A stretch of 64,000 nucleotides of DNA from Candidatus Zixiibacteriota bacterium (GTDB lineage Bacteria; Zixibacteria; MSB-5A5; GN15; FEB-12), in assembly GCA_040756055.1 (NCBI GenBank), contig JBFLZR010000009.1:4620-68619 (forward strand), read 5' to 3'. Position 1 is the stretch's first letter, and every line of letters begins with the position of its first letter. The notes beneath the pieces are model-generated. The model saw only the letters and a program-made list of their open reading frames with translations. It was not told the DNA's origin and did not search any database. The translations under genes were made by a program, and so were the position numbers. Below, one piece after another: positions 3,198 to 37,033 of the stretch.

Positions 3198-3317
3198 GGG
3201 CCCCCGCTTTCGCGGGGGTGACGATAAGAGGCAGGGGTGACGATAAGAGGCGGGGGTGACGATAAGAGGCAGGGGTGACGATAAGAGGCGGGGGTGACGA
3301 TAAGAGGCGGGGGTGAC
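3198..3317 (+). repeat. REP-like hairpin followed by a 19-bp tandem repeat (about 5.4 copies)
   Basis: CCCCCGC-TTTC-GCGGGGG hairpin, then GGGGTGACGATAAGAGGC(A/G) at 3215, 3234, 3253, 3272 and 3291, with a partial copy at 3310. Confidence 0.9.
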
Positions 3318-9475: not shown

Positions 9476-9564
9476 ATTTGTGATATAAAAGTTGTTGATT
9501 TAGACACTTATGCTGTATTGATTCAGTAAATGTTCCAAGTGTCTCAAACAGGGGAGTGAACCTA

Positions 9565-18206: not shown

Positions 18207-18304
18207 TTTTCTATCTCCCTCTATCTTGTTGCTAATCTGATAAGTTAAACAACGGCTTGAAAAAAACAAGAGGAAAGTCATGAGGGCATATTTCCGGCCG
18301 GTCT

Positions 18305-20008
18305 TCAACGACAGACGGTAGCGTTGGGCTCCGCTGTCCGAGCCCCTTTCTGCTGGTTGTAGGTGGTGAACTCCACGACGAAGGAGGTCCCCCGACCCGG
18401 CTGCGAGTTAACATCGATTTTCAGCTTCAGGGCGGCGCAAATCCGATGGACAATCGACAATCCAAGACCTGTCCCCTGCTTCTTGGTCGAGAAAAACGGC
18501 TGGTAAATTTTCTTCATGTGCTCCGGTGAGATTCCGGGACCATTGTCATCGACATGGAGTTCAACTTTGTCACGGGGCCTGTTCACCTGCAGGCGGAATC
18601 TGACGCGTCCGGGTTTTCCCTCGAAGGACTCGAAGGCGTTGGTGGCCAGGTTCAAAAGAAGCTGCTTAATCAGGTCCTCATCGCCCACAACGTAAACGAA
18701 TGGTTCATCCGATTCGAATTCCAACTCAATCCGGTCATTGAGGGACTTGTGATGGTGCAGGATTTCGAGAACATCGTTAACCAGATGGCACAACTCTACT
18801 TTGTTGTAGGATGTGCGATCGATTCTGGCGTACGTAAGAAACTCATTGAGAATCTTTGTCAGACGGTCTGATTCTTTGATTATCAGGGTCATCAGCTTCT
18901 GGTTTTCTCCGTCGAGTTGCAAATCGTTTTTGAGTACCTCAACAGAACCCGATATGGCTGCCAGCGGGTTTCGGATCTCGTGGGCAATAGACGCAGAGAG
19001 TTCACCTACGGCAGCCAATCGATCAGCGATTCTGACCTTGGCCTCAAGTCTCTTGGCTTCAGTCAGGTCAGAAAAGATGGCGATTATTCCTCTCATCCCC
19101 CTGCCCTCTTCCGTGAGGATTGAAGTAGAAAGGCCGAGGGGTACTTTCTGTCCGTTGTTATTGATTATATCAATTTCGACTCTTGGATGTTCCATCCGAT
19201 TTTTGACACCATCGATGAGGAAACCCGCCAGTTGCGGCATTCTTTCGGCAAAGACATCCCCGCAATACATGCCTTTGACATCCTCTTCGCCGTAGCCCAG
19301 AATTCGCTCGGCGGCGCGGTTGAAGTATATGATAAATCCTCTGGAATCGATGGTGAGCAAGCCTGAGTTGAGGTGCTTGAGGATATCATCGGTTTCCAGT
19401 TTGGCTTTTTTAAGGGCCATCGAGGTGTCGGCAAGCTGACGGTCGCGTTGTTTAAGGCGTTCGGCCAGGTATCCTGAGATGAAGGCGACGAGATAGAAAA
19501 TCAGGATGTGTAAGAAGATCGAGTAAAAGGCCGAGTCGTCGGTCAGGAATATAGTTTTTAGGGCGCGCACGGAGAATTCGGGATCTCCGCCGGCGCCGGC
19601 CAAACCGAGCCATATTATAAAGGCGTAGGCGATGGAGACCAGTGAGGCAACGACGAGCGTGCCGAGCAAGCGATAAATCAGAGCCGCGGCTACTATGGTA
19701 AGTATGAACAGCGCCGAGAACGGCGAGTTCACGTTGCCGGTGGAGAAGATGATGCTCGATTCGATGACGATCTCGAATACAAATTGCAGGCTGATAACGA
19801 CGGCAGTAAGGCCCGTGAGGCGGTGTCTCTTGCTGGCCGCCAGCAAAAGGCCGAACAGTAGCGTACAGATGGAGTACAGTACGAACTGGAGTCGCATGAA
19901 CTGGGGATATTTCATCCAGAACACAACGACCGCGAAGAGTACGATGTAGTGCGCGAGCCGGAGAGGCAAAAACCAGCCGGTTTTGTTTGTCGAGTTTTGC
20001 TCTGTCAT
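18305..20008 (-). CDS. pilS: PilS-like membrane PAS sensor histidine kinase
   Basis: N-terminal TM bundle, PAS, H-box IAHEIRNPL, N/G1/F/G2 boxes; follows pilC. Confidence 0.8.
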   Translation of the reverse strand: MTEQNSTNKTGWFLPLRLAHYIVLFAVVVFWMKYPQFMRLQFVLYSICTLLFGLLLAASKRHRLTGLTAVVISLQFVFEIVIESSIIFSTGNVNSPFSALFILTIVAAALIYRLLGTLVVASLVSIAYAFIIWLGLAGAGGDPEFSVRALKTIFLTDDSAFYSIFLHILIFYLVAFISGYLAERLKQRDRQLADTSMALKKAKLETDDILKHLNSGLLTIDSRGFIIYFNRAAERILGYGEEDVKGMYCGDVFAERMPQLAGFLIDGVKNRMEHPRVEIDIINNNGQKVPLGLSTSILTEEGRGMRGIIAIFSDLTEAKRLEAKVRIADRLAAVGELSASIAHEIRNPLAAISGSVEVLKNDLQLDGENQKLMTLIIKESDRLTKILNEFLTYARIDRTSYNKVELCHLVNDVLEILHHHKSLNDRIELEFESDEPFVYVVGDEDLIKQLLLNLATNAFESFEGKPGRVRFRLQVNRPRDKVELHVDDNGPGISPEHMKKIYQPFFSTKKQGTGLGLSIVHRICAALKLKIDVNSQPGRGTSFVVEFTTYNQQKGARTAEPNATVCR

Positions 20009-20071: not shown

Positions 20072-21268
20072 TTAAATCTTGCCAATGATGTCGAACATCG
20101 GCAGGTACATAGCGATCAAGATACCACCGATAACGATACCCATAAAGACGATGATGATCGGCTCGATAACGGAGGTCAAAGCCGATACGGCTTCATCCAC
20201 CTCTTCATCGTAGAAATCGGCAATCTTGTTAAGCATTTCGTCGAGTCCACCGGTTTTTTCACCCACGGAGATCATCTGAGTGACCATCGGTGGAAACACG
20301 CCGGTTTCTTTCAGGGGTCCGGTAATGGTATCACCTTCGGCGATGGACAGCACGGACTTGTTGATGGCGTTGGCCACGACAAGGTTGCCGGCCGCTTTGG
20401 CGGTGATTTCCAGAGCTTCCAAAATCGAGACACCGGAAGCGAGCAGTGTTCCGAGCGTGCGCGTGAATCTGGCGATCGACGATTTCCTGACAAGGTTACC
20501 GAGTACCGGGGACGCCAGCAGGAATTTATCCCAGAGGAGGGCGCCGGCAGGGGTGCGTTTCCACCAGACGAACACTGCAAAGCCGCCTATTGCCCCACCG
20601 ACCAAATAAAGGAAGTTTGCCTTGAGAAAGTTGGAGATCATCAGTACGATCTGGGTCGGCTTGGGCAACTCGGCATTCAGTCCACCGAACATCTTGGCGA
20701 ATACGGGTACGATGAAAGCAAGCATACCGACAGTAACGGCGGCCGCGACCACGACGATCACCGCCGGGTAGACCATAGCGCCTTTTACTTTTCTAATCAA
20801 CTGGTCCGCCTTCTCGCGGTAGACCGCCAGACGGTTGAGAATGGCGTCGAGAGCGCCGCCGACCTCACCGGCTTCGACCATGTTAGAATAAAGGGGGTCG
20901 AAAATCTTCGGATGACGAGCAAGGGCCTCCGAAAGCGTGGAACCGCCCTGTACGGAATCTTTCACCTGGTTTACTATCTTGGCCAGTTCTCTACTTTCCA
21001 TCTGGGAAGCCAGAATGTCAAGACACTGAACCATCGGAAGTCCGGCGCCGATCATGGTGGCAAACTGTCGGGTGAATCGCGAGACGTCGATACGTTTGAT
21101 ACCGCTGCCGAACTTGATCTGTATTTCAGGGGCTCTCTTGGTGATAGACGTTACCATGATCCGGTTCTGCCTGAGCACCCGTTCGAGGTCAGCCCTGGTA
21201 TTGGCTTTGAGTTCGCCTTTGACGGCAGCTCCGGCAAGGGTCTTACCTTTATATTCAAAGACTGGCAC
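20072..21268 (-). CDS. pilC: Type IV pilus inner-membrane platform protein
   Basis: FTRQFATMIGAGLP, AGEVGGALD, FTRTLGTLLASGV and VGEKTGGLDEML. Confidence 0.95.
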   Translation of the reverse strand: MPVFEYKGKTLAGAAVKGELKANTRADLERVLRQNRIMVTSITKRAPEIQIKFGSGIKRIDVSRFTRQFATMIGAGLPMVQCLDILASQMESRELAKIVNQVKDSVQGGSTLSEALARHPKIFDPLYSNMVEAGEVGGALDAILNRLAVYREKADQLIRKVKGAMVYPAVIVVVAAAVTVGMLAFIVPVFAKMFGGLNAELPKPTQIVLMISNFLKANFLYLVGGAIGGFAVFVWWKRTPAGALLWDKFLLASPVLGNLVRKSSIARFTRTLGTLLASGVSILEALEITAKAAGNLVVANAINKSVLSIAEGDTITGPLKETGVFPPMVTQMISVGEKTGGLDEMLNKIADFYDEEVDEAVSALTSVIEPIIIVFMGIVIGGILIAMYLPMFDIIGKI

Positions 21269-21297: not shown

Positions 21298-22371
21298 TCA
21301 AAAAGCCGCGGTTTTCTGTTTTGACAGCGACTCACTCAATTCCTGAGGATTGTGACTGCAATTCATAGCGTCATTTATCGTTATCTTGCCGGTCTGATAC
21401 AGCTCGGCAAGAGACTGATTCATGGTCTTCATTCCAAACTTCTGTCCGGACTGAATCATGGAGTATATCTGGTGCACTTTGTCATCCCTTACGAGCGCCC
21501 TGATAGCCGGCGTTACGACCAGGATTTCCATGGCCATGACGCGTCCGCCGCCGATCTTGGGAATGAGAGTCTGCGATACGATAGCCTGAAGCGTGAAGGA
21601 CAGCGAAATTCGAATCTGTTCCTGCTGGTTGGTCGGGAAAGCGTCAATTATTCGGTTGATAGATTCCGAGGCCGAGTTGGTGTGCAGCGTCGCGAAGGCA
21701 AGATGTCCCGTTTCCGATATCGAGAGCGCCGCTTCGATAGTCTCCAGATCGCGCATCTCGCCGATCAGTACGACATCGGGATCCTCACGCAGAGCGTACT
21801 TCAGGGCGGCAGCGAAGCTCTGGGTGTCGGAGTAGACTTCGCGTTGATTGATCAGCGCTGTTTGATGCCGGTGAAGATACTCGATGGGATCTTCGACGGT
21901 GATAATATGGACCGGGCGTTCCTTGTTAATTTTGTCAATGATCGAAGCCAGCGTTGTGGATTTACCGGAACCGGTAGGCCCGGTAACGAGCACGAGGCCC
22001 CTGGGGAGTCTCGAGAAGTCGCTAATTACTTTGGGAAGTCCGAGTTCGTCGAAGGTCCTGATCTTGTAAGGTATCTGACGTAAGGCGACGGCGACGTTGC
22101 CCCGCTGCATGAACATGTTGCAGCGAAAGCGGCTCATCTGCTCGATACCGAAGGAGAAGTCGAGTTCGGAGTTCTGTTCGAACTTCTGTTTCTGTTTTTC
22201 ATTGAGCATCGAGTATGAGAGCTTCTTGGTTTGTTCGCTGGTGAGGATGTCGTGATTCAGTCTTTGAAGCTTGCCGTCAACTCTCACGACCGGTGGCGAA
22301 CCGACGGTCAGGTGTAAGTCGGAGGCACCCATTTTGACCATCTGCTCAAGTAATTCGCGCAGGGATACCAT
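21298..22371 (-). CDS. pilT: Type IV pilus retraction ATPase
   Basis: ASDLHLTVG, GPTGSGKSTT, ALREDPDVVLIGEMRD, TGHLAFATLHT and AIRALVRDDK. Confidence 0.96.
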   Translation of the reverse strand: MVSLRELLEQMVKMGASDLHLTVGSPPVVRVDGKLQRLNHDILTSEQTKKLSYSMLNEKQKQKFEQNSELDFSFGIEQMSRFRCNMFMQRGNVAVALRQIPYKIRTFDELGLPKVISDFSRLPRGLVLVTGPTGSGKSTTLASIIDKINKERPVHIITVEDPIEYLHRHQTALINQREVYSDTQSFAAALKYALREDPDVVLIGEMRDLETIEAALSISETGHLAFATLHTNSASESINRIIDAFPTNQQEQIRISLSFTLQAIVSQTLIPKIGGGRVMAMEILVVTPAIRALVRDDKVHQIYSMIQSGQKFGMKTMNQSLAELYQTGKITINDAMNCSHNPQELSESLSKQKTAAF

Positions 22372-22431
22372 CTATTATCTCCAGACAGCTTAAAATTTTA
22401 TCAATTTGGTACAAAACAGCGTTTGCTATTA

Positions 22432-22458
22432 TTATCGGATTATTTAGTCGAATCTTGA
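22432..22458 (-). promoter_or_regulatory. Sigma28-like promoter upstream of pilT
   Basis: Minus strand TCAA-N15-TCCGATAA. Confidence 0.45.
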
Positions 22459-22518
22459 AAGAATTTAGGCTTATTTTTGAGCCTAAGCTCTTGGACTACA
22501 AGGAATTTATTTGAGGGT

Positions 22519-24219
22519 TCAGGCGCCGGCAGAGGTTACCGAGAAGACTTCGTCGATACTGACTACTCCGGCCTTCATTTTATCCACGGCGGCCATACGC
22601 AAGCTGAACATACCCTGTTCCATGGCGGTTTTTCTGATGTCGGAGTCGCTGGCCCGAGCCAGAATAAGCGACTCGATTTCGGCGGTAATCGGCATGACTT
22701 CATAGATGCCGGTTCGCCCGGCCACGCCGGTGTTGTTGCAGTCGTTACAGCCGACACCGCGGAAAGCTCGGATGTTTCTGAGCAGTTCTTTGGGAACTCC
22801 GAAACTCTGGACCTGTTCTTCGGTCAGATTGATCTCTTCCTTACAGCTCTGGCAGATTTTGCGCATCATACGCTGAGCCATAATCATCTTTGTCGCCGAG
22901 GCCACCAGGTAGTAAGGTACGCCCATATCAATTAAGCGGTTAATAGATGACGGGGCGTCGTTGGTGTGAAGGGTCGAGAACACCAAATGACCCGTCAGAG
23001 CGGCGCGGATAGCGATTTCCGCTGTCTCGCTGTCACGAATCTCACCGACCATGATGATATCCGGGTCCTGACGCAAGAAAGAGCGCAGGGCGGCGGCAAA
23101 GGTCATGCCGATATCTGATTTGACGGCTACCTGGTTGATACCATCGAAGTTGAACTCGACCGGGTCCTCAGCCGTCATGATATTCACATCTATGGTGTTG
23201 ATCTGCTTCAGCGCCGAATACAAAGTAGTGGTTTTACCGGATCCGGTAGGACCTGTAACCAGGATGATGCCGTAGGGCAGGTGAATCTTTTCGTTGAATT
23301 TCTTAAGGTCTTCTTCCCTGAAACCGAGTCTGGTCATGTCGACCATGAGGGCCATCGGATCCAGAATACGCATAACGACCTTTTCGCCGAATATCGTGGG
23401 CAGCACCGAAACACGAAGATCGACGGTACGACCGGCGATCTTGATTTTTATGCGGCCGTCTTGTGGGAGGCGGCGCTCGGAGATATCGAGTTCGGCCATG
23501 ATTTTTATGCGCGAGACGATAGCAGCGCGGTACTTGTACGGCAGCGGAGCCATCTCCCGCAAGTCGCCATCGATTCTGTAGCGTACGCGAATTCTTTTCT
23601 CATACATTTCGAAGTGAATATCGGAGGCGCCCATCCTGATCGCATCGGCAATAATCGAGTCGACCAGTTTTACCAGCGGTTTGTCCTGAATCTGTGAGAG
23701 AAGGTCCGATTCGCTGGGGGATTCCTCATCGGAGACTACTTCGAGGTCGGAGTCCTCCTCGAGGCCTTTAACGATAGCCGACAATCCGTCACTGTCCGTA
23801 TAGTAGGCTTCGATCGCTTTTTCGATAGCCTTTTCGGGCGAGATTACCGGCTGCACGGTGCATCCGGTGATAAACTTGATGGCATCGAGGACGTAAATAT
23901 TGTTTGGGTCGCTGATGGCCACCAGAAGGGTCTTGTTCAGTTTCGATACCGCGACAACCTTGAATTTGCGGGCGATATCGAGCGGGATGAGTTTTACTAT
24001 GTCCGGGTTCAGTTCGATATCGGCCAGCCGGAGAGCGCCGATCTTGAGGTGTTTGCCGACGAATTTGGCAATATCGTCCTCAGATTCGACAGCGCCCAAC
24101 CTGACCAGGGCGGCTTCGAACTTTTCCTTTTTGTCTTTAGCTGAGGCGAGCGCCTTCTCGGCTTGTTCCTGCGTAATCTTGCCGGCTTTGACCAGCATGG
24201 CGCTAAGTTCAGTGGACAT
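22519..24219 (-). CDS. pilB: Type IV pilus assembly ATPase
   Basis: ASDIHFE, LDISERRLPQDGR, GPTGSGKTTT, LRQDPDIIMVGEIRD and a CxxC...CxxC zinc site. Confidence 0.96.
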   Translation of the reverse strand: MSTELSAMLVKAGKITQEQAEKALASAKDKKEKFEAALVRLGAVESEDDIAKFVGKHLKIGALRLADIELNPDIVKLIPLDIARKFKVVAVSKLNKTLLVAISDPNNIYVLDAIKFITGCTVQPVISPEKAIEKAIEAYYTDSDGLSAIVKGLEEDSDLEVVSDEESPSESDLLSQIQDKPLVKLVDSIIADAIRMGASDIHFEMYEKRIRVRYRIDGDLREMAPLPYKYRAAIVSRIKIMAELDISERRLPQDGRIKIKIAGRTVDLRVSVLPTIFGEKVVMRILDPMALMVDMTRLGFREEDLKKFNEKIHLPYGIILVTGPTGSGKTTTLYSALKQINTIDVNIMTAEDPVEFNFDGINQVAVKSDIGMTFAAALRSFLRQDPDIIMVGEIRDSETAEIAIRAALTGHLVFSTLHTNDAPSSINRLIDMGVPYYLVASATKMIMAQRMMRKICQSCKEEINLTEEQVQSFGVPKELLRNIRAFRGVGCNDCNNTGVAGRTGIYEVMPITAEIESLILARASDSDIRKTAMEQGMFSLRMAAVDKMKAGVVSIDEVFSVTSAGA

Positions 24220-24281: not shown

Positions 24282-24773
24282 TTAATCCTGAAAGATGTCG
24301 TCGAGCTTATCCTCGGCTTGGCTGGCGAAATCGCTTGAAATCCCGGCCTTGGCGCCATCGGCCGCCTGCTCTTTAATTTTCTCGAAAATTTTGCCCAGTT
24401 CGATAGATGTTTCCTTTGCGTACAGACGTACCATACCAATAGTGGTCCGGTCATCGAAGATCACCACCAGAATCGAGCGGTCTCCAACCAGGGACATGTG
24501 AATGTTGTCCTTCTTTCCCTGATGAAAGAGCACTGAGAATTCCGGTTCACCGACGAGACGGGCGATTTCTTTCGTGGAAGCGAATGACCCGGCTAACAAA
24601 GCGGCAAGAGCGGTCGTGTCGAGAGAGTGAGTAAACCCCTGCCTCGTGATAAGGTGGCCGTCCTTGTCAACCAAGAGAGCGCATTTCGCCTCGGCTCCTT
24701 TGAGCATTTTTGAAATCAACGCATCAATCTGGTTAATTTCTTCTTCGTAAAATATCAGACTATCATCAGCCAT
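24282..24773 (-). CDS. mglB: MglB roadblock/LC7 GTPase-activating protein
   Basis: LIFYEEEI...ALLVDKDGHLI...DTTALAALLAG...ILVVIFDDRTTIGMVRL and an acidic C-terminal helix (DDIFQD) closely follow Myxococcus MglB. Confidence 0.9.
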   Translation of the reverse strand: MADDSLIFYEEEINQIDALISKMLKGAEAKCALLVDKDGHLITRQGFTHSLDTTALAALLAGSFASTKEIARLVGEPEFSVLFHQGKKDNIHMSLVGDRSILVVIFDDRTTIGMVRLYAKETSIELGKIFEKIKEQAADGAKAGISSDFASQAEDKLDDIFQD

Positions 24774-24790
24774 TTCAGCCTCCTAGATGA

Positions 24791-25879
24791 CTATTTTATT
24801 CCAAATAAGCGTTTAAAGAACCCGCGCTTTTTAATATCGCCGCGGCGTTTCAATGACGGTGCCATAGCGGGCGAAGCCAACGATGCGCCGCTGTCAGGCG
24901 AGTCGGCTATACCCTTTTTGACACTACTGGCTCTATTTCCGTAATCGTCAACCTCAGGTGAAGCGGAGGGGGTGAACTTGGCCGCAGATATCTTTCTGGC
25001 GTTTTCCGCCGCTTTGTCACTCCCCGGATAAGGACGATATTGTGATTTCGATTCAGCCGCAGGCGGAGGTTCTTCCTCGGTTGCGGTGGAAGTCGCGCCG
25101 GTCTGAATTGGCTGTGTTGATCTTCCGCCGCTCGCGGCGGACCGACCGTCAGCCGATATCTGAGTACCTATGGTAGCCGCTGCCGGCGGCATTGATACGG
25201 GTGCGGAGACCGCGACGGATTGCGCCGACGCTGAGACGGGAGCCTGAGCAACCGGTGGCTCGTGGTAACTCACGCCCGGTTTGGGTCTATTGGAAGCGCT
25301 GCCCTTGGCCTTCTCCAGCACCAGCTTGATGATCAACTTGAGAGTATCAAAGACTCCGTTGCCAACGGTGGCGGAAGCTTCGAAATGCGGCCGGCCGCGG
25401 GTGTTCAGCCGGGCATTGAGCGCCTCAACCGGGAGCACACCCGGCAAGTCTCGCTTGTTGTACTGAATGACCATAGGCATATCGTTGATATCGTAGCCGT
25501 ATTCCCTGAGGTTTTCCTCGAGGTTGATCAGCGACTCGATATTCTCGTCCATTTTATCCGGCTGACTGTCAGCCACGAACACTACTCCATCGACACCTCG
25601 AAGTACCAACTTCCTTGTAGCGTTGTAGTATACCTGGCCGGGGACGGTATACAATTGGAACTTAGCCGCAAAACCGTTGATGGTACCGATATTGATGGGC
25701 AGAAAATCAAAATACAGTGTTCGGTCCGCCTCGGTGGCCAGTGATATCATTTTGCCGCGCGTATCCGACGGGACCTTGGCATGGACGTACAGCAAATTGG
25801 TGGTTTTGCCGGACAGGCCTGGCCCGTAGTATACAATTTTGCAACAGACTTCACGCGACGAGTAGTTTATGGATACCAT
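24791..25879 (-). CDS. mglA: MglA-family small GTPase with a long C-terminal extension
   Basis: KIVYYGPGLSGKTTNL, DRTLYFDF, TVPGQ and QYNKRD in the first ~195 aa; then a Pro/Ala/Ser-rich linker and terminal KKRGFFKRLFGIK. Confidence 0.92.
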   Translation of the reverse strand: MVSINYSSREVCCKIVYYGPGLSGKTTNLLYVHAKVPSDTRGKMISLATEADRTLYFDFLPINIGTINGFAAKFQLYTVPGQVYYNATRKLVLRGVDGVVFVADSQPDKMDENIESLINLEENLREYGYDINDMPMVIQYNKRDLPGVLPVEALNARLNTRGRPHFEASATVGNGVFDTLKLIIKLVLEKAKGSASNRPKPGVSYHEPPVAQAPVSASAQSVAVSAPVSMPPAAATIGTQISADGRSAASGGRSTQPIQTGATSTATEEEPPPAAESKSQYRPYPGSDKAAENARKISAAKFTPSASPEVDDYGNRASSVKKGIADSPDSGASLASPAMAPSLKRRGDIKKRGFFKRLFGIK

Positions 25880-25908
25880 ACTGAAAATTCCTGTAAGTTT
25901 GTAATTGT

Positions 25909-26250
25909 TTACCCTGCCAGTTTGAGCTTGCTTATCGCGTTTTTAATTTCCAGGCGGATTAGTCCGATATTGACCTGTTTTTCAGTGGTAACGACCAGTA
26001 TCCCCAGACCGGCATCCGAGAAAAACAATTTGCCCTGTTCAGCTTCAATGGTCACCTGTTTGAGCGGAGTCGTATTTAACCGGTCGAGCGATTTTCTGAT
26101 GTTAGTCGTTATTGACGCCGCCAGGGCTCCAATGGCTTCGCTCTCAAACGATTCGTCCAGATTCGCGGCTATGACGATGCCATCGTTGCCGACGAGCATC
26201 GAACCGGTGACTCCGGTCGTCTTATTCAAATCGTCCAGTACGTCATACAT
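25909..26250 (-). CDS. Stand-alone roadblock/LC7 protein (MglC-like)
   Basis: GVTGSMLVGNDGIVIAA...ALAASI...VTIEAEQGKLFF...LIRLEI roadblock pattern; 113 aa. Confidence 0.88.
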   Translation of the reverse strand: MYDVLDDLNKTTGVTGSMLVGNDGIVIAANLDESFESEAIGALAASITTNIRKSLDRLNTTPLKQVTIEAEQGKLFFSDAGLGILVVTTEKQVNIGLIRLEIKNAISKLKLAG

Positions 26251-27217
26251 AGCTTCTCTCCACGTTCTCGATAAGCTTTTCGCTGTATCGTTCAGTCACA
26301 TATTTTCTTATCATTTCCAGCCCCTGATTTATACGAATGTTTAGAACATCGTCCATAGCCCGCTCCGCCACTACCATCAGGCAGTAGGCTTTTTCGCGAG
26401 CCACTACAATTTTCTTGTCTTCAAAGAGCATATCGACCTTTTCGGGCGGCTCACATTGCAGTCTTGATACAACCTGACGGTTGGCTTCAATGAGAGACAG
26501 GGCAAACGGAGCCCAGTCTTCAGATTCAACACCGCGGCGACTGAAATTGCCCAAGAGCAATCCCTCATGATCAACCACCGCCGCCATCAGCACCGAACCA
26601 TCCTCGCCTATATATCGCGTAGCGCGATCGAACGCGTTGCCTTCGCCGAATCCGGTGCTGCCGGTTGAAGAGCCGGAGCTCCTGGTCGTGAACTCCTCTT
26701 CCTTCGGCATGGATATAGTGGATTGGCTGAAGCCTTTCTCTCGTGAAACCGCCACCGACGTTGATCCGAAACCTTGCGGCTGGGCCGCGGGCTTGGAGGC
26801 GGACGGGGTTTTGGCGCGCGCCCGCGGTGAATGGAGCCCCTGTACCACCGGCAGGAGAATAAACGGCGTAGCCACTATGTGTAAAAGCATCGCCGGGAGA
26901 TAACTCCCCATCCCTGCCAACACGGCCATTTTCACCTGCCATTGATACATAATGGCGATTAACAGTCCGGTCAGCGCTCCCAGAGCAAACCGGTAAACCA
27001 TGCACAATCCTGCTGACGAGATCAACTGAAGCGGCGAAAGCCGGCGGTTAAGCAAATGGACCACGAGTCCATAGAACGCCAGCTCATAGACTATATTGAT
27101 GAGTGGCGCTTCGGATAGATCCGTTCCGTATCTCTTGGGGAAGATCAGCATTGACACGACCAAAACCAACAGAGACAGAAGCAGTATTTGTCTTGCTATG
27201 CGTCCGCTTATTTCCAT
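26243..27217 (-). CDS. Membrane protein with C-terminal roadblock/LC7 domain
   Basis: Four to five hydrophobic segments in the first 130 aa, a Ser/Thr/Gly linker, then SVLMAAVVDHEGLLL...CLMVVAE. Confidence 0.75.
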   Translation of the reverse strand: MEISGRIARQILLLSLLVLVVSMLIFPKRYGTDLSEAPLINIVYELAFYGLVVHLLNRRLSPLQLISSAGLCMVYRFALGALTGLLIAIMYQWQVKMAVLAGMGSYLPAMLLHIVATPFILLPVVQGLHSPRARAKTPSASKPAAQPQGFGSTSVAVSREKGFSQSTISMPKEEEFTTRSSGSSTGSTGFGEGNAFDRATRYIGEDGSVLMAAVVDHEGLLLGNFSRRGVESEDWAPFALSLIEANRQVVSRLQCEPPEKVDMLFEDKKIVVAREKAYCLMVVAERAMDDVLNIRINQGLEMIRKYVTERYSEKLIENVERSYV

Positions 27218-27234
27218 CTGTCATCCTTTATTGT

Positions 27235-28095
27235 TCACCGGTACGACACCAGCAAGTTTTCGACCTTCATTCTCAGTGTTCCCAGATTGGCCGATTCGTT
27301 GGCCACAAACAGGAACAAACCATCATGAACACGGACCAGATAGAAGGTCATGTTCATTGTTTCTATCAATACGCTATAGAAATTACCGAATGAGCTTTTC
27401 ACCAGGTCCTGACTGAGCAGGTGCCCTACATCGCTCAGGGTAGCACTGCACAGAGATGAATCCATGGTCAGGTTCCATTCGGAGTCTATGACCAGCCCTT
27501 CAAAATTGACAAGCAGGGTACCATCGATACCGGGAATGGTCATCGCCATTTCAATCACCTGCCGCGCGGTCAGTTTTTCAGATTCCGATGATTCTTTTGC
27601 GACAGGGACCTCATCGGTCTGACTGGCCTTTTCGTCGGTTTGAACGGTCGCTGATTCAACCGCTTTTTCGCGCTCCTGAGGGATTTTGAGGGCTATTTCC
27701 AGCAACCTTTTGATCTGGTCGTTCTGGGGATCGGCCTCGGTGAGTTTACGAAGCAGTTTAACCGCCTGCTGAAACTCTCCCTTATAGATGTATATTTCAG
27801 CGAGAAGTAATTCAATAGTGCGCGTCACTCCGTCAATCTCGGCTGCCTTGTTGGCCTCGATTTCGGCCCAGTCATACAGGCCGCGATCGAGATTGATTTT
27901 TGCCATAACGACGTGGGCTGAGCCATAAGACGGATGGATCTTAAGTCCGTTCTGGCAGATGCGAAATGCTTTTTCCAATTCGCCTTTCTTTCGATAAGCC
28001 TCGGCCAGCGCGGCAAAGATCTGTGAATTAGGATCAACGTCGAGAATCTTCTGACATTTATTGATCCGATCGTCTATTTCAACAGCACTAATCAT
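27235..28095 (-). CDS. TPR protein with C-terminal roadblock/LC7 domain
   Basis: DPNSQIFAALAEAYRKKGELEKA TPR pattern; C-terminal GIDGTLLVNFEGLVI...LFLFVANESANLGTLRMKV. Confidence 0.8.
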   Translation of the reverse strand: MISAVEIDDRINKCQKILDVDPNSQIFAALAEAYRKKGELEKAFRICQNGLKIHPSYGSAHVVMAKINLDRGLYDWAEIEANKAAEIDGVTRTIELLLAEIYIYKGEFQQAVKLLRKLTEADPQNDQIKRLLEIALKIPQEREKAVESATVQTDEKASQTDEVPVAKESSESEKLTARQVIEMAMTIPGIDGTLLVNFEGLVIDSEWNLTMDSSLCSATLSDVGHLLSQDLVKSSFGNFYSVLIETMNMTFYLVRVHDGLFLFVANESANLGTLRMKVENLLVSYR

Positions 28096-28158
28096 CTGAT
28101 ACTTCGAAGTTATTATTTAACAGTCTCTTACCGGGTATAAAATTTTGCCCGATATATA

Positions 28159-28187
28159 ATTATGTTCGTTACAGTGACTTATGTCAA
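28159..28187 (-). promoter_or_regulatory. Sigma70-like promoter for the TPR-roadblock...mgl genes
   Basis: Minus strand TTGACA-N17-CATAAT. Confidence 0.55.
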
Positions 28188-28202
28188 CTTATTTGTTTTC
28201 TC

Positions 28203-28565
28203 TCAGTCCAGTATCTTTTTCGCTTCAAATATCCCGAACAGGAACAACCCTGCCATCGCGACCCATAACACAGGGACTACGAAGCTCGGGATGGCTATGA
28301 TTTCGGTGTCCTGAAGCAATCCGGTCAGCTGGGAAACCGCAAGGACCGCGAAAGCGAGCATAAGGATCTGCCAACTCCTGGAGAGCAGTCCTCCTTTGAG
28401 TACGTTGACCACTTTAAGCGAGACAACCACACAACCCACAGCGATCCCGAGAATCACAATCTTCAAGGCGGTCGGCGGGGATACAATCACCGCCAGATTA
28501 GCTGCCATTGCCTGACTGTATGAGACCAGGACGCTTACTGCGCTAAAACAGAAAATCCTTTTCAT
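28203..28565 (-). CDS. Small membrane protein of unknown function
   Basis: 120 aa with a signal-like N-terminus and three more hydrophobic helices; starts 2 nt after the DUF4388 stop. Confidence 0.75.
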   Translation of the reverse strand: MKRIFCFSAVSVLVSYSQAMAANLAVIVSPPTALKIVILGIAVGCVVVSLKVVNVLKGGLLSRSWQILMLAFAVLAVSQLTGLLQDTEIIAIPSFVVPVLWVAMAGLFLFGIFEAKKILD

Positions 28566-28567
28566 TA

Positions 28568-29770
28568 TTACCCTCTTACCATCTTGACGACTTTATCTGC
28601 TCTTTTCATTGTTTTATAAAAACCGTCGTCGATTCCAAATCTTTTTACGAGTTCGCGTCGCACGGCCAGCGGTTCGGCGATTTCCTTTTTTACCTGAACA
28701 GCGGCTTCGCGATAAAGGCTCACGCCGAGCAGTTGAAAGACATATTCCAACTGTTCGGACAGCATGCTCTCCAACCCTGACATCAGCTTGTGCAGCCTGA
28801 CCTCGGAGGGAAAAGTGCGTGCCGTAGAGACGAACTTTTCGAATGACGGAGACAGGTCGGAAGCCGGGTCAACACCCGGAAAGTAAGTGAAGACGCCGCT
28901 GCGATATTGTGAGGCGAAATCCGCGAAGAGACCGTTGTTTTCTCCGAGGACGTCATCGACCAGACTGCGAATCTTGAAGAAACAATTGTTGTACAGGTGA
29001 AAAAGCACCCCGAGTATTATTTCCTCTTCATCTTCTTTCTCTTCGGGACTGTCCTCGCGCCGACCGACGACTTCAATGAGGTTCCCGACAATAAGACGGT
29101 AGACTGACCGGCAGGTCACGAATTCGCCCATTGGAGAAATATTAATAAGGTCAGGCAGGGTCCGCTCGCCGTTTATCAGAGCCATGACCCGGTATTCTTC
29201 AAGGGAAACGGTTATATCTTCCTTGGTGACCCTGGGAGATTTGGCAAGCGCCAGGAGTACATCATCCGGCGGAAGAACCTTTTGAATCTCCATCCATTCG
29301 TCGATACGACGGGTACCTTCCATGATAACGTTCATGGTGTTCAATTCGATCAGGAAGGGCGCGCTGGAAGGTGCGGCTCCTTCGTGAAAAACGAAGTCGC
29401 CATCCTGCCACGAGAAGAGATTATAAACGATCTCTTCGATCTGCAAGCGGAGGCACTCGGCGATATCGTCTTTGTGGAAAAGATTCATGTCTATCAGCGT
29501 GGTGCCGAGTTGTCTTCCGGTTTGTTTGTGCAGGGCGATGGCCCTGTCCAGATCAGACTTGGTGATTTTACCCCTGCGAAGCAGCATATTGCCGAGCAGA
29601 TCCTCCGACGAGTTCACGGAGGAGGCATAGATTATGTTGCCCCCCTTGAAGGCTACTTCTTTTTGTCGGGTGGCTGTTTTAACTTCGAATATGCCTGTCT
29701 TTTTTCCGGTAGCCAAAAGCTGCAGGATATCCGGAAACGAGACGGTTTTTAAGTTGCCGGCTAAGCTCAT
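28568..29770 (-). CDS. DUF4388 (PatA-N/PATAN-like) domain protein
   Basis: MSLAGNLKTVSFPDILQLLATGKKTG start, LGxxLLxxGxIT-type repeats, FSWQDGDFVF and EGTRRIDEW. Confidence 0.85.
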   Translation of the reverse strand: MSLAGNLKTVSFPDILQLLATGKKTGIFEVKTATRQKEVAFKGGNIIYASSVNSSEDLLGNMLLRRGKITKSDLDRAIALHKQTGRQLGTTLIDMNLFHKDDIAECLRLQIEEIVYNLFSWQDGDFVFHEGAAPSSAPFLIELNTMNVIMEGTRRIDEWMEIQKVLPPDDVLLALAKSPRVTKEDITVSLEEYRVMALINGERTLPDLINISPMGEFVTCRSVYRLIVGNLIEVVGRREDSPEEKEDEEEIILGVLFHLYNNCFFKIRSLVDDVLGENNGLFADFASQYRSGVFTYFPGVDPASDLSPSFEKFVSTARTFPSEVRLHKLMSGLESMLSEQLEYVFQLLGVSLYREAAVQVKKEIAEPLAVRRELVKRFGIDDGFYKTMKRADKVVKMVRG

Positions 29771-29892
29771 TTTTAATCCTCAATCCTGGGTTCAGGATGC
29801 TCTATAGCAGTTCCGATAATTCTTTATAATTATCGGGTATTAGGGCGATTTTCTTTATCGGAAAAAATCCGATGTGGCGGACTCAAAGAAGC

Positions 29893-32151
29893 CTATTTCA
29901 GGTCGAGGCTTAATGTTCCGGCAGCATTCAGGTCCTGGACCTCTACGAGGGGATTATCGGCCGCTGGCCAGGCAATTCGCTGTTCTAATTTTGAACAGAA
30001 TAAGCTTTGGAAGCCCGCTGACTCGAGTTCCAACAATACGTCTTCCGTGACATTCCAGGGTTGGCCAATCACCAGCATTCTTCTGGACCCGCATTTCTGC
30101 GGCAGGCGATTATTCGGCAACAGCTTATGACATATCAGCACTTCCATATTATCGACTTCGACCCAGACACCCGCTTCACCGGGGCGATAGCAGCGCCGAC
30201 CATGACCAGCCGGGGGATACTGATTGGCAAAGACGGTTATTTCGGCGGTCAGGTTGAGGGAATCCATTCGATCGCAGACTTCACGCAGCGCGGCGGAACA
30301 CTGCTTCGGTACGATTATCTGGCGTGAGCGATAGCGGCTGGAGAGCCGTAAAAGATCGTCGATCCCATCGTAGTCTGCGGTCAGGGCAATGATTTTGCCG
30401 ATCGTTTCGATTTCAAGTTCGTCAAGCAGAGGCTGAATTATCCTGGAATCGATCGGATAGTTGCGCCCCTGTATGCCCGTGAAAATCAGGTCAGCCTGGT
30501 TTTGGCCGGTGGGATGAACCGCGGCGCAGACGCCACCGGGAATGTTGAGTAGAGTCAATCTTTGCCCCGCTGTCCAATTGAACGAAGCGAAAAAGGCGGC
30601 AGCAAGCAGGATGTTAGCACCAGTCAAGGCGGAAAATACGAGCACGCGTCTGACAGGTTTCTTGCCGATCGACCACATCGAAAGGGTAAAAAATCCATAG
30701 AAACACACTACGGCCCAAAGTGGAGCATCCGGCACGATTGCGGCGGGCATGTTCTCGCTCCCCAGAAATTGAACCAGGTGTGAGATGACCGCCAGTAACA
30801 GGTTGAGAAGCGAGCCAAACAATGCTCCCAACATCGGCAGTATGAGATGAGATACCAGAACCGTCAGAATACCCGCGACCGCCAGCGAGACCAGAGGTAC
30901 AATCACAAGATTGGCCAGAGGCGAAATCAGCGGCACACGGCCGAAGTAGTAAGCAATCACACCGAGAGAGCACAATTGGGCCACCACCGATACCATTAGA
31001 GGGAAAATCAGCCACCGGTACCACCACTTATTTTGTACGGACCTGAAGAATTCGGCCGCTATCGGAAGAATGACAATCAGTCCCCAGGCTGTAATGAACG
31101 AAAGTTGAAAGCCAACATCGAAAAGTTGCGCCGGGTCATACAGCAGGATTATCATCGCGGTCGCGGCAATGATGTTGTTGAGGTTGTAGCGTCTTTGAAG
31201 CAGCCCGGCCGTTATGACAAGTGTCGCCATCAGAGAGGCCCTGACAACCGACGGTTCTTCATACGACAACAGCGTGAACACGACAATTACAGTGATCAGG
31301 ACAGCCGCCCGTCGCTTCGGCCTGAGCGATAACGGCCTCAACAGCATAATAAAAAACAACAGGACTATGGCGACGTTTGAGCCGGACACCGCCAGCAGAT
31401 GAAGAGTGCCGGAATCCCGAAAACGCTGATAGACTTCGACCGGGATATCTCTGGTTTCACCGATTAGAAATCCTGCAGCCATGGCCGCGCTTTGTGGCGA
31501 CAGATTCGCGTAGAGGGATTCTCTTATGAGATCACGCAATTCATCGATAATGGGAAAGATTGAGTAGCGGTTGCCCTTGTCGACTCTTACGTCAAGCAGG
31601 GTCGGCAAGTAGACTATTCCGAACACCCCTTTCATGTTCAGGTAGCGGCGGTAATCAAAGGCGGCCGAAAAACCGGATGCTCGAAGCGGGTAGATTTTCG
31701 CTTCAAATTCCAGCCGGTCTCCCCTCTGTATGGCCGTGGTAGTATCAGTGACACGCAGAAGAATCGCACCGTCGGGATAAAAGGTTCTGTTCGAGACAAG
31801 AGAATCGATGGACATCTTCAACTCGGTCCGGTCACTTTTCAGGTCGGGCCAGTCGGTCACCTTGCCGAAGATGTGGTATCGCTCAGCGTTTTCGACGAAG
31901 TTTATCACATTTAAGGGCCCGGGATCTACATATCTGATGGAGAATCCGAACGCGGACAGAAACAGCAGCGATAAGCCAAATAACAGCGCCGCCCTTCCCG
32001 AATCAGGGCCGCTGAGATACAACAAGCCACCGGTAGCGGCAATCATGCCGGATGTCAACCAGAGCCATGAGGGTATGTGGAGCTGGTCGGCGAGGACAAT
32101 TCCGCAAACGATGCAAAATAGAATGCCGATAGATGGAAACTTACGCACCAT
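29893..32151 (-). CDS. comEC: ComEC/Rec2 competence protein
   Basis: GFLIGET, FRDSGTLHLLAVSGSNV, SVVRASLM, DVGFQLSF and ANLVIVP; degenerate MBL-like C-terminus. Confidence 0.9.
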   Translation of the reverse strand: MVRKFPSIGILFCIVCGIVLADQLHIPSWLWLTSGMIAATGGLLYLSGPDSGRAALLFGLSLLFLSAFGFSIRYVDPGPLNVINFVENAERYHIFGKVTDWPDLKSDRTELKMSIDSLVSNRTFYPDGAILLRVTDTTTAIQRGDRLEFEAKIYPLRASGFSAAFDYRRYLNMKGVFGIVYLPTLLDVRVDKGNRYSIFPIIDELRDLIRESLYANLSPQSAAMAAGFLIGETRDIPVEVYQRFRDSGTLHLLAVSGSNVAIVLLFFIMLLRPLSLRPKRRAAVLITVIVVFTLLSYEEPSVVRASLMATLVITAGLLQRRYNLNNIIAATAMIILLYDPAQLFDVGFQLSFITAWGLIVILPIAAEFFRSVQNKWWYRWLIFPLMVSVVAQLCSLGVIAYYFGRVPLISPLANLVIVPLVSLAVAGILTVLVSHLILPMLGALFGSLLNLLLAVISHLVQFLGSENMPAAIVPDAPLWAVVCFYGFFTLSMWSIGKKPVRRVLVFSALTGANILLAAAFFASFNWTAGQRLTLLNIPGGVCAAVHPTGQNQADLIFTGIQGRNYPIDSRIIQPLLDELEIETIGKIIALTADYDGIDDLLRLSSRYRSRQIIVPKQCSAALREVCDRMDSLNLTAEITVFANQYPPAGHGRRCYRPGEAGVWVEVDNMEVLICHKLLPNNRLPQKCGSRRMLVIGQPWNVTEDVLLELESAGFQSLFCSKLEQRIAWPAADNPLVEVQDLNAAGTLSLDLK

Positions 32152-34309: not shown

Positions 34310-37033
34310 TCAGTAGACGCAGCCGGGCAGCGGTTCGGTACCACCTTTATAGAAATAGTTGACTATGTAGGTGATGTCGAGCGGGTCGATTTCGCAGTTG
34401 CCGTCGACATCGGCCGCATTGAGATTGGGCGGCGCGGCTCCGCTTTTCCAGACATAGTCAACCATGTATCCCAGATCAAGTGGGTCAACGACTCCGGAAC
34501 CATCGATATCGCACGGAACGTAACCCAGACCCTCGCCCAGAACATTTACAGCCATGGCAATCACGGCTTCGGACGAAGCCGGCGTCAGGAAATAAAGCGG
34601 GAAGGAAAGCACAATGCGCTTGCCGTGGGCAGTTTCGTAAAGCAGCCCGCACGGGAGGCCCTCGAAGGCGGGATTGTCCGTGAACGAGTCAAACGTATAG
34701 ATGACTTCCACTCCGGCCCGAGGGGTCAGTACCGACATATATGGCATCTTCCCGGCCCAGGTATTATCGGTATCCATCGATAGCGATGGCCATCCGTTCT
34801 GTCCGACGGCGCCGACGAAATCATTTTGCGTGTTGATGCTGTGCGCTGCTACACCGAACTCCGCGTAAAGCAGGTGGTCGGTGTCCACCGGTGAGTCCAC
34901 CCATGACGTTACGGTTTTCCATCCTGCGATGAATATGCTTGTCTGATTCGAGGCGTACCACTCCAGGGTCGGTTCACTGTAGCGTGCATCGTTGTTACCG
35001 GAGTCATCATCCAGCCAGAAGATCGAGGAGTAAGGGCCGGCTTTCTGACGGCTCAGAGTATCGGTTGTACCGGCCACGGTATCGATAGCATACGTGGTCG
35101 CGCCGAATATGCTGTCAAAATAGGCTTCCTGTGTTGCCTGTGACGGAAGCACCCAGTCGTCGTAGGTTTCGTCGACCAGCAGAACTCCCTGGTCGAAGGT
35201 ATAGGCCATGCCGCTGACCTGGGCGGAAGGGCCTGATTCGTTCAGGTCATGGTCCACAGCTGTCAGGTAATAAGTATAGGTTGTCAGGGCTTCTACTCCG
35301 GTGTCAACATACACCGTGTCGGTAAGGTTATCTTGGTACAGGACCGCTCCGGAACCATCGTCGCGATAAAGCCTGTAGTGGGACAAATCGGCTTCGCGAT
35401 TGGAGTTCCAATTCAGACCGATCTGGCGGATTCCGATGTTCAGGGATATACCCTGCGGAATCCTGGGAATGATGAGTGGAACCCCGCTCCCTTCGAGCAG
35501 GAAGCTGGCCGGATAAGCGCCTTCGGTTTCACCTTCGACGGCAAAATAATACGCGGTGCCGGTAATGAGACCATCGACCACCCAGGAACACACATCGGTC
35601 GGGATACTAATCGAATAAGGATAGCTGCCTGAGACGGTGCCGTAATGTAATGTGTATGTGTATGCGGGGTCGCAGTCGGTCCAGAACACTTCCAGCGAGT
35701 GTCCGTCACCCTGATCCACGACTTCCTCGATATCTGTGGCGTGGACACTGTTCGCCACGATTCCCACTGAGGCGATGGCCATCTTGACCACTTCGGTAAA
35801 GTACGCGAAATTCATACGTTCGGAAACATCGAGGTTGGTGTGCCAGCCGTCGTAATTGAAGTTGGATTCAATGGCGTCGACAATTTCGAACCCATATCTG
35901 TAGAACGAGTAGTGATCTGAGCTGGTACCCATAGCCCCGGTGATCGGCGTAAGGCTGGTCAGGCGCGTAGCGGCCTGGGCCGAAATCTGGCGGTAAGCGA
36001 GATTTTCGCCGCCCGCGAGATCAATATTGTATTCATTGTAAGGGTCATACCCGACCATATCATAATTGAACATAACTTCGAGATTGGTTCCATTTTCATA
36101 GAATGTCCTGGCCGCGGCGGCGGAACCGTACAGCCCAACTTCTTCTGCCGAGAAAGCCATAAATACAACGGTCTTGCGCAAGGGGACATTAGCGAGGATC
36201 CTCGCCAACTCCAGCATGGTTGTAGTGCCGGACGCGTTATCATCGGCGCCGGGAGCATAGACATACGGTCCCGGGTCCACCCCAAAAGTAATTGAATCGT
36301 AATGACCGCCGACAACTATCACCTTATCCGGCTCGGCGTAGCCAGGCTTGACAGCCATCACGTTGTAATGCCTGTCTCCCCCATAGTAAAACTCCGGTGT
36401 GGTAACATCGGTGTAACCCCAGTCGAGAAATTTCTGCACCATCCAGTCGCGGGCAGCGTCGATTTGAGTGGTCCATATGTATCTGGTTTCAAAATCCTCG
36501 AGGTGGGTGTCGAACTCATAGATGGAATCCTGGCTGACAAGGTCCACCAGCGTGTCGGATGGGTAGCTGTCGAGATACATCAGCAGATCGGTGACTGCCT
36601 TGGATACATAATAATATTCCACGCTGAGTTCTGTAAGGGGTACCGCCTTCCACTTCCCCCTGCCTGTCTGAGAAAGCGCTATCTCGCTGTTGTATGGGCT
36701 GACTTTTAGCCCCATACCTATGTCCACCGATTCGGGGATATTCGATGGCGCCATGTCGGGTTTGCGAGGAGGGAACATGAGATAGGTCGCCGAAGCATCG
36801 ACATCGCGCATGACGATCTCAAACTCAATGCCTGCCTGAGTTAAAAGGTCGGCCTGCTGGGCGTTTACTGAGGCAAGGAAACGATCCTCCACCCGGGTGT
36901 AGGCGGGATCCAGAATCCCTCTGGTTACTTCGGCCTGATAGTAATTTTTGATTGTGACAAGTCCGAGGTCATCGGCTGCCGCTATTGATGATGTGAGGAT
37001 CGCGATTGTCAGAAGAACAGGGAGTGTTTTCAT
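34310..37033 (-). CDS. Secreted M28-family peptidase with FN3 domains and C-terminal dockerin
   Basis: Signal peptide; GGHYDS, GADDNASG, AEEVGLYGS, NYDM and SDHYSF; FN3-like repeats; paired EF-hand dockerin DIDGSGVVDPLD / DVDGNCEIDPLD. Confidence 0.9.
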   Translation of the reverse strand: MKTLPVLLTIAILTSSIAAADDLGLVTIKNYYQAEVTRGILDPAYTRVEDRFLASVNAQQADLLTQAGIEFEIVMRDVDASATYLMFPPRKPDMAPSNIPESVDIGMGLKVSPYNSEIALSQTGRGKWKAVPLTELSVEYYYVSKAVTDLLMYLDSYPSDTLVDLVSQDSIYEFDTHLEDFETRYIWTTQIDAARDWMVQKFLDWGYTDVTTPEFYYGGDRHYNVMAVKPGYAEPDKVIVVGGHYDSITFGVDPGPYVYAPGADDNASGTTTMLELARILANVPLRKTVVFMAFSAEEVGLYGSAAAARTFYENGTNLEVMFNYDMVGYDPYNEYNIDLAGGENLAYRQISAQAATRLTSLTPITGAMGTSSDHYSFYRYGFEIVDAIESNFNYDGWHTNLDVSERMNFAYFTEVVKMAIASVGIVANSVHATDIEEVVDQGDGHSLEVFWTDCDPAYTYTLHYGTVSGSYPYSISIPTDVCSWVVDGLITGTAYYFAVEGETEGAYPASFLLEGSGVPLIIPRIPQGISLNIGIRQIGLNWNSNREADLSHYRLYRDDGSGAVLYQDNLTDTVYVDTGVEALTTYTYYLTAVDHDLNESGPSAQVSGMAYTFDQGVLLVDETYDDWVLPSQATQEAYFDSIFGATTYAIDTVAGTTDTLSRQKAGPYSSIFWLDDDSGNNDARYSEPTLEWYASNQTSIFIAGWKTVTSWVDSPVDTDHLLYAEFGVAAHSINTQNDFVGAVGQNGWPSLSMDTDNTWAGKMPYMSVLTPRAGVEVIYTFDSFTDNPAFEGLPCGLLYETAHGKRIVLSFPLYFLTPASSEAVIAMAVNVLGEGLGYVPCDIDGSGVVDPLDLGYMVDYVWKSGAAPPNLNAADVDGNCEIDPLDITYIVNYFYKGGTEPLPGCVY

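Follow-up and report, generated by a model that had tools for sequence, protein, structure and literature searches.

We describe a gene cluster of a Candidatus Zixiibacteriota bacterium in which a small GTPase of the MglA type, its partner MglB, and three further roadblock proteins are encoded next to a type IVa pilus motor. The cluster lies on contig JBFLZR010000009.1 of assembly GCA_040756055.1, in a stretch of 64,000 nucleotides (nt) covering contig positions 4,620 to 68,619. This whole stretch is called the window below; all coordinates refer to it, and the module and pilus genes listed here are all on its minus strand.

In the direction of transcription, the cluster encodes a PATAN/DUF4388 protein (400 amino acids [aa]; 28568..29770), a small membrane protein (120 aa; 28203..28565), a tetratricopeptide repeat (TPR) protein with a roadblock domain (TPR-roadblock, 286 aa; 27235..28095), a roadblock protein with four transmembrane (TM) helices (4-TM-roadblock, 324 aa; 26243..27217), a free single-domain roadblock protein (113 aa; 25909..26250), MglA (362 aa; 24791-25879), and MglB (163 aa; 24282..24773). 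The genes for the pilus extension ATPase PilB (22519..24219), the retraction ATPase PilT (21298..22371), and the platform protein PilC (20072..21268) follow. The intergenic gaps from the PATAN gene to pilB are 2, 107, 17, -8, 29, 17, and 62 nt, an operon-like spacing. A preliminary description of this DNA had reported the same-strand run from DUF4388 to MglB and its junction with pilB, pilT, and pilC; every gene is where that description placed it, and the order is strictly kept across the loci examined. We think it probable, though well short of certain, that the cluster encodes a membrane-tethered MglA/MglB switch which acts, with roadblock adaptors, on the type IVa pilus motor and which represents an expanded, phylum-wide Zixibacteria form.

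Locus and gene products

The GTPase matches Myxococcus xanthus MglA structures over residues 3-196 (5ymx_A; E 7.8e-78), and in the alignment to M. xanthus MglA the P-loop (GPGLSGKTT), the arginine finger (DRT), and the TVPGQ and NKRD motifs are intact. It thus has the features that define group-1 MglA, namely, the P-loop, the arginine finger, TVPGQ, NKxD, and similarity to structural homologues. It departs from the single-domain form of ~195 aa in its length, and its orthologues, at 311-399 aa, are all tailed. The G domain occupies residues 1-195 (25295..25879). The tail (residues 196-362, 167 aa; 24794..25294) is rich in Ala, Ser, and Pro, disordered, and poorly conserved up to its end: mean column conservation among 54 orthologues is 0.89 in the G domain, 0.35 in the linker, and 0.70 in the last 32 residues. 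The last 13 codons (24794-24832) encode the terminal motif KKRGFFKRLFGIK. The C-terminus KRGFFKRLFGIK is present in 54/54 orthologues, all of which fit the consensus KKRGFFKRLFG[IL]K.

The membrane-targeting sequence of Escherichia coli MinD is KGFLKRLFGG (PMC5471200), and the MglA motif is identical to it at 7/10 residues. The motif has a net charge of +4 to +6. The end of the tail is apparently a MinD-like amphipathic membrane-targeting sequence, a putative anchor that, unlike in MinD, sits on an MglA-type GTPase. In K-Ras, a disordered hypervariable region precedes a basic membrane anchor, and the MglA tail is built alike, with a disordered linker ahead of its basic end; compared with Ras and Rho proteins, it has no lipidation motif. 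The preliminary description overlooked this conserved tail, which by its sequence is the most direct membrane link predicted for the module. No paper describing a membrane-anchored MglA was found in the literature. Two further short motifs in the tail, RPYPG and P.MAPSL+RR, are kept across the phylum. Partner proteins might dock on them, the TPR domain being one candidate.

MglB aligns with M. xanthus MglB (6izw_B) over residues 5-162 (E 3.7e-40). It has the roadblock domain (Pfam Robl_LC7, E 1.8e-13), the C-terminal helix region, and the full-length similarity expected of the MglB family, and it scores 93.8 bits against the Thermus-type NCBIfam equivalog, below the cut-off of 200. A GTPase-activating protein (GAP) role is predicted; recent work gives MglB both GAP and guanine nucleotide exchange factor properties.

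That the cluster holds four roadblock domains, one of them fused to an integral membrane domain, was proposed in the preliminary description and is borne out. Three pass the Pfam gathering cut-off for Robl_LC7 (PF03259; 23 bits). The free roadblock protein scores 49.8 bits (E 3e-13), and its best PDB sequence matches are the Roadblock/LC7 chains 7yh1, from an Asgard archaeon, and 7f8m. It was considered as an orthologue of MglC and rejected, with an E value of 0.26 to MglC versus 6e-10 to the Asgard roadblock. TPR-roadblock scores 26.3 bits against Robl_LC7 and also matches several Pfam TPR models; TPR repeats (residues ~1-140) are followed by a charged linker and the roadblock domain (~176-286). 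In profile-profile comparison (hhalign), it matches the free roadblock protein with 97.4% probability (E 1.3e-11).

The fourth domain, in 4-TM-roadblock, had no match in Pfam, NCBIfam, or PDB sequences, so its fold was recognized only through a structure model and profile comparison. The protein has 171 homologues, of which 25 were aligned; an N-terminal membrane domain and a C-terminal domain of ~125 aa are conserved, and the linker between them is variable. An AlphaFold2 model built on the family alignment contains helices compatible with four TM segments, then a disordered linker (residues 130-191), then a domain (residues 195-311) of alpha-beta-beta-alpha-beta-beta-beta-alpha topology with a predicted local distance difference test score (pLDDT) of ~90. 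When the model was compared with the PDB by Foldseek, nearly all of the best 50 matches were to roadblock, MglB, or LAMTOR2 chains (probability 1.00; target-normalized TM-scores, 0.63-0.83), Asgard roadblocks and a Streptomyces roadblock among them. With hhalign, the C-terminal domain matches the free roadblock protein with 79% probability (E 1.7e-5), and both this domain and that of TPR-roadblock are closer to the free roadblock protein than to MglB. The roadblock domain is predicted by the positive-inside rule to face the cytoplasm, because basic residues lie around the N-terminus, in the TM2-TM3 loop, and in the segment after TM4. The start of the free roadblock gene overlaps the 3' end of the 4-TM-roadblock gene by 8 nt, and an overlap (-17 to -5 nt) is kept in 54 genomes. 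Because the genes overlap, their translation is probably coupled.

The preliminary description likened these proteins to the eukaryotic Ragulator, in which a lipidated LAMTOR1 wraps two roadblock heterodimers and Rag GTPases dock via their own roadblock C-terminal domains. On that model, the accessory roadblock proteins, with or without MglB, would form one stable membrane-anchored hetero-oligomer that docks MglA. Both systems do combine a small GTPase with several roadblock-fold subunits at a membrane; here, four roadblock folds are encoded consecutively, one of them membrane-integral, the 4-TM-roadblock and free roadblock genes overlap as described, the three accessory domains resemble one another more than MglB, and LAMTOR2 appears among the structural matches. 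That match is, however, no better than those to MglB or the Asgard roadblocks, the cluster encodes no LAMTOR1-like wrapping subunit, and MglA has a disordered tail in place of a Rag-type roadblock C-terminal domain. Roadblock proteins such as MglB and MglC also function as homodimers, and a mirror-tree test (see Discussion) gave no support for specific pairs. The likeness to a Ragulator hetero-oligomer is therefore retained as an analogy only, and the existence of such a scaffold here appears doubtful.

The PATAN protein matches PF14332 with 115.2 bits (E 2.5e-33; cut-off, 25) over residues 4-159, helical insertion included. The insertion (residues 59-110) matches NCBIfam NF053729, an MshE-related motif for binding of cyclic di-GMP (c-di-GMP), with 47.3 bits (cut-off, 38), and across 50 orthologues the motif region shows at least 80% conservation. 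A helical domain of ~240 aa makes up the C-terminal part. An AlphaFold2 model of the protein (pLDDT, 80) had no significant fold match in the PDB (best E, 0.17). The small membrane protein, whose gene begins 2 nt past the end of the PATAN gene (median gap across genomes, 3 nt), has a signal-peptide-like N-terminus and about three hydrophobic or TM segments by hydropathy, and it matched no Pfam or NCBIfam family.

The pilus genes supply the two ATPases and the platform of a type IVa pilus motor. PilB, encoded 62 nt downstream of mglB, scores 710.6 bits against the NCBIfam equivalog TIGR02538 (cut-off, 675.65), and PilT scores 506.5 bits against TIGR01420 (cut-off, 319.1). PilC contains the Pfam domain T2SSF in two stretches (E 1.2e-68).

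Conservation and transcription

The cluster was sought in one genome per species, and 4-TM-roadblock was found in 59 loci, with gene order judged as far as the contigs reach. The order MurJ, ComEC, PATAN protein, small membrane protein, TPR-roadblock, 4-TM-roadblock, free roadblock, MglA, MglB, PilB, PilT, PilC, PilS and the strand are identical in all 59 loci, although 4-TM-roadblock identity drops to 31%. Four more diverged loci with a long MglA have identical neighbours, and the small membrane protein is at the same position in all loci reaching far enough upstream. The gap before the TPR-roadblock gene is 101-114 nt in 48 genomes, and that between mglB and pilB is 32-97 nt. Median identities are 77% for the free roadblock protein, 82% for MglB, and 81-85% for PilB, PilT, and PilC; the values for 4-TM-roadblock (43%) and the small membrane protein (44%) are lower, in keeping with faster evolution.

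The 59 loci are labeled as Zixibacteria (29), Ignavibacteriales (13), a few other groups, including Calditrichota, or none. In a PilB tree, the Zixibacteria, Ignavibacteriales, and Calditrichota labels interleave at very short distances, and because of this all loci with the full gene order are assigned to one lineage, Zixibacteria. Conservation across phyla, raised in the preliminary description, did not hold up, as the full cluster was found in this one phylum only. Likewise, among 705 homologues of TPR-roadblock, those named by phylum are almost all from Zixibacteria.

A HMMER search with MglA as the query returned 6773 relatives. The 150 best representatives of clusters at 50% identity are all 255-668 aa long, a list biased toward greater length, as the tail of the long query itself adds to the score, and 149/150 have TVPGQ. 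Among these 150 long MglAs, the C-terminus is a basic GFFxxLF-like motif in at least 42 and a TM segment in 19; in many others it is a beta-rich domain with the pattern IxVPVxL...LxLxLxL, so that at least three classes can be told apart. In one large group of long MglAs, FFTSV and PVNPK motifs precede the anchor. When the next most different long MglA was used as the query, the organism-named matches were again Zixibacteria. A lineage known from peat metagenomes has consecutive genes for TPR (732 aa), PATAN (356 aa), MglA (462 aa), and MglB (299 aa) proteins (locus L070, 4481-10285; also L067, L071, and L072), and these loci have no extra roadblock genes and no pilB, pilT, or pilC nearby. Because that lineage holds it, the TPR-PATAN-MglA-MglB core is, by gene content, wider than Zixibacteria. 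The three accessory roadblock proteins and the joining with the pilus motor operon appear, as far as tested, specific to Zixibacteria.

The best sigma-70-like site of the region (TTGACA, 17 nt, CATAAT; 28159..28187, minus strand; 11/12 consensus matches) lies in the 107-nt gap 5' of the TPR-roadblock gene. Across 49 aligned gaps at this position, GTTGACATAA is conserved in at least 80% and the -10 element in at least 50%. In many Zixibacteria, another motif, T[TC]AAGA-N16-CCGATAAT, precedes pilT (conserved; 43 gaps) and the PATAN gene and could act at both as a shared promoter or regulator site. No conserved sequence motif was found in the mglB-pilB gap among 53 genomes. A terminator-like hairpin with a T-rich tail (22465..22486, minus strand; consensus scan and RNA fold) lies downstream of pilB in the pilB-pilT gap. 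Since a conserved promoter motif precedes the TPR-roadblock gene and none precedes pilB, a predicted operon from TPR-roadblock through pilB is suggested. The whole region suggests three such units: PATAN with the small membrane protein, TPR-roadblock through pilB, and pilT with pilC. In the window, the T[TC]AAGA-type sites fall in 22372-22518 and 29771-29892, and they are unlike the TTGACA-type motif.

The Mgl and roadblock genes might merely share an ancestral Zixibacteria arrangement with pilB, pilT, and pilC and have no functional coupling to them. The genes for rpsT, MurJ, and ComEC and the downstream peptidyl-prolyl isomerase (PPIase) or ATP synthase genes are likewise syntenic, and the PATAN-MglA-MglB genes of the peat lineage are located away from pilB, pilT, and pilC. 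Order, strand, the gene overlap, and short gaps nevertheless persist while 4-TM-roadblock diverges to the extent given above, and the mglB-pilB gap has no conserved promoter motif, whereas TPR-roadblock, pilT, and the PATAN gene each have one. Functional links of MglA and PATAN proteins to PilB are also known in other phyla. We regard a purely inherited arrangement as very improbable.

Flanking genes and other features

Downstream of pilC, a PilS-like sensor kinase (18305..20008; minus strand; Pfam 6TM_PilS, PAS, HisKA, and HATPase) is kept at the same position across loci. No response regulator gene is adjacent to it. The 617-aa protein encoded at 16455-18308 was considered as PilR and rejected, since it carries several PPIase domains (SurA/PrsA-like) instead; its gene overlaps the 3' end of the kinase gene by 4 nt.

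Upstream of the PATAN gene, the DNA-uptake channel ComEC (29893..32151; minus strand; Pfam Competence and DUF4131) is always present. PilB, PilT, and PilC also power competence pili, and together with this invariant neighbour they could mean that control by the module is directed mainly at a DNA-uptake (competence) pilus and not at polarity or twitching motility; no pilus-fibre, Frz, or gliding genes are found in the 64-kb window. Between ComEC and PATAN, however, lie ~120-150 nt with a promoter-like motif of their own, and the adjacency of ComEC is weak evidence because MurJ and rpsT are conserved neighbours too. Moreover, the characterized MglA systems, those of Myxococcus, Bdellovibrio, and Thermus, all concern pilus positioning or motility. 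A mainly competence-related function is thus held to be unlikely.

The remainder of the window includes a Cas1 gene (162-1073) and, after it, a CRISPR array (1449-2805) of 21 repeats of ~36 nt (AATGTACTTAATCGGTTATTGCTGTCAAGCTCCAGC) with 30-nt spacers. An open reading frame at 2158-2769 lies inside the array and was discarded as spurious. A 19-nt tandem repeat (GCGGGGGTGACGATAAGAG; 5.6 copies; 3212-3317) is found just upstream of the gene for a protein of 505 aa whose C-terminal domain is FlgD-Ig-like. A 1149-aa Eco57I/MmeI-like type IIG restriction-modification enzyme is encoded at 9556-13005, and the gene at 34310-37033 specifies a secreted M28 peptidase of 907 aa whose C-terminal domain is of the dockerin type. 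The window as a whole contained no match to an Rfam RNA family.

Discussion

The Zixibacteria module has in common with M. xanthus a group-1-type MglA (TVPGQ, arginine finger), MglB, extra roadblock proteins, a TPR protein, and type IVa pili as the output, and from Myxococcus we infer a possible role in polarity. It differs in being a single block with pilB, pilT, and pilC and in having three extra roadblock proteins versus one, of which one carries four fused TM helices and another a short TPR domain. Its MglA, unlike that of M. xanthus, has a 167-aa tail with a MinD-like putative membrane anchor. The roadblock paralogue of M. xanthus, MglC, forms a bridge between RomR and MglB (PMC10329633), and the TPR protein SgmX of this species connects MglA-GTP to pili. 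Beyond the generic roadblock and TPR proteins, none of RomR, RomX, RomY, and SgmX was found in the window, to which this comparison is confined.

The presence of PATAN genes beside MglB and MglA genes has been reported (Makarova et al. 2006; Wuichet and Sogaard-Andersen 2014), as have systems with two MglB-like genes per MglA (Wuichet and Sogaard-Andersen 2014). A Synechocystis PATAN domain binds PilB1 and PilC and localizes to the membrane (bioRxiv 10.1101/2021.06.11.447907). The Zixibacteria likewise encode their PATAN protein beside MglA and MglB. It differs from the cyanobacterial PATAN response regulators in having no receiver domain and is distinguished by the MshE-type insertion motif, the uncharacterized helical C-terminal domain, and the paired small membrane protein. 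The published PATAN-Mgl surveys do not describe TM- or TPR-fused roadblock proteins or a long-tailed MglA. The preliminary description had called the module undescribed. This stands insofar as no paper joining Zixibacteria and MglA was found; the link between PATAN and MglA/MglB and the scaffolding roadblock protein MglC had already been published.

In the proposed switch, the tail would hold MglA at the inner membrane, in the way that a hypervariable region and polybasic anchor hold Ras and Rho proteins, and MglB would act as the GAP that switches MglA off. 4-TM-roadblock, the free roadblock protein, and TPR-roadblock would form roadblock dimers. In the manner of MglC with RomR and MglB, these dimers would recruit or sequester MglB, MglA, or both at membrane sites, and active MglA would thereby be confined to certain membrane sites. 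The TPR arm of TPR-roadblock may be the adaptor that contacts effectors or the conserved motifs of the MglA tail. The output would be PilB, apparently encoded by the last gene of the same operon. The PATAN protein, predicted to be transcribed separately, may bind PilB and PilC as in Synechocystis and may also bring in c-di-GMP as an input. Together with the PATAN protein, active MglA would then act on PilB and PilC so that pilus extension starts, setting where and when it does so.

Several points weigh against this reading. c-di-GMP binding by the PATAN protein is uncertain because motif 1 of its insertion reads LLG, with Leu in place of the Arg of what we take to be the MshEN consensus (RLG). 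Receptors of the MshEN type have two or more such motifs in tandem, each of 24 residues, in which Arg, Leu, Gly, and Gln hold the key positions. The hydrophobic moment of the MglA tail motif is modest, at 0.40 versus 0.45 for the MinD sequence in the same calculation. The promoter and terminator calls are consensus matches only. Since the conserved block also holds MurJ, ComEC, and rpsT, part of the synteny may reflect inherited gene order instead of functional linkage. The mirror-tree test, made on 24 genomes and controlled for PilB, PilT, PilC, and MurJ distances, is a weak test and gave no clear pairing (partial r, at most 0.36; 4-TM-roadblock versus the free roadblock protein, 0.04). Finally, the host organisms are uncultured and the switch is proposed from sequence analysis only: the parts list, folds, motifs, and conservation are established, and all interactions are ones that we infer.

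A broader proposal, which we advance tentatively and as speculation, is that Zixibacteria, and possibly many uncultured bacteria, have a membrane-resident small-GTPase system consisting of an anchored MglA, a heteromeric roadblock platform, and a c-di-GMP-sensing PATAN protein that gates PilB. In such a system, the MglA anchor would consist of a Ras-like linker and a polybasic amphipathic end, or of a TM tail anchor in other lineages, and membrane-integral heteromeric roadblock dimers would set where MglA is turned on and off. Its breadth is supported by the basic and TM ends among the 150 long MglAs, within the length bias of that list. If true, prokaryotes would have a counterpart to the eukaryotic combination of a GTPase with a membrane roadblock platform.

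MglA and MglB are the model for Ras-like polarity control in bacteria, and knowledge of them comes nearly all from Myxococcus, where polar scaffolds with genes at other sites position a soluble MglA. What is novel in the Zixibacteria module is a GTPase with an apparent anchor of its own, roadblock proteins fused to membrane and TPR domains, and a pilB gene that is apparently part of the same operon. The module offers a compact set of parts for reconstituting GTPase-controlled pilus placement in vitro or in a laboratory host, and it allows one to ask whether membrane tethering of a GTPase and roadblock platforms arose in bacteria as they did in eukaryotes. Zixibacteria are common in sediments and soils, and the module would be the first lead on how they move or take up DNA.

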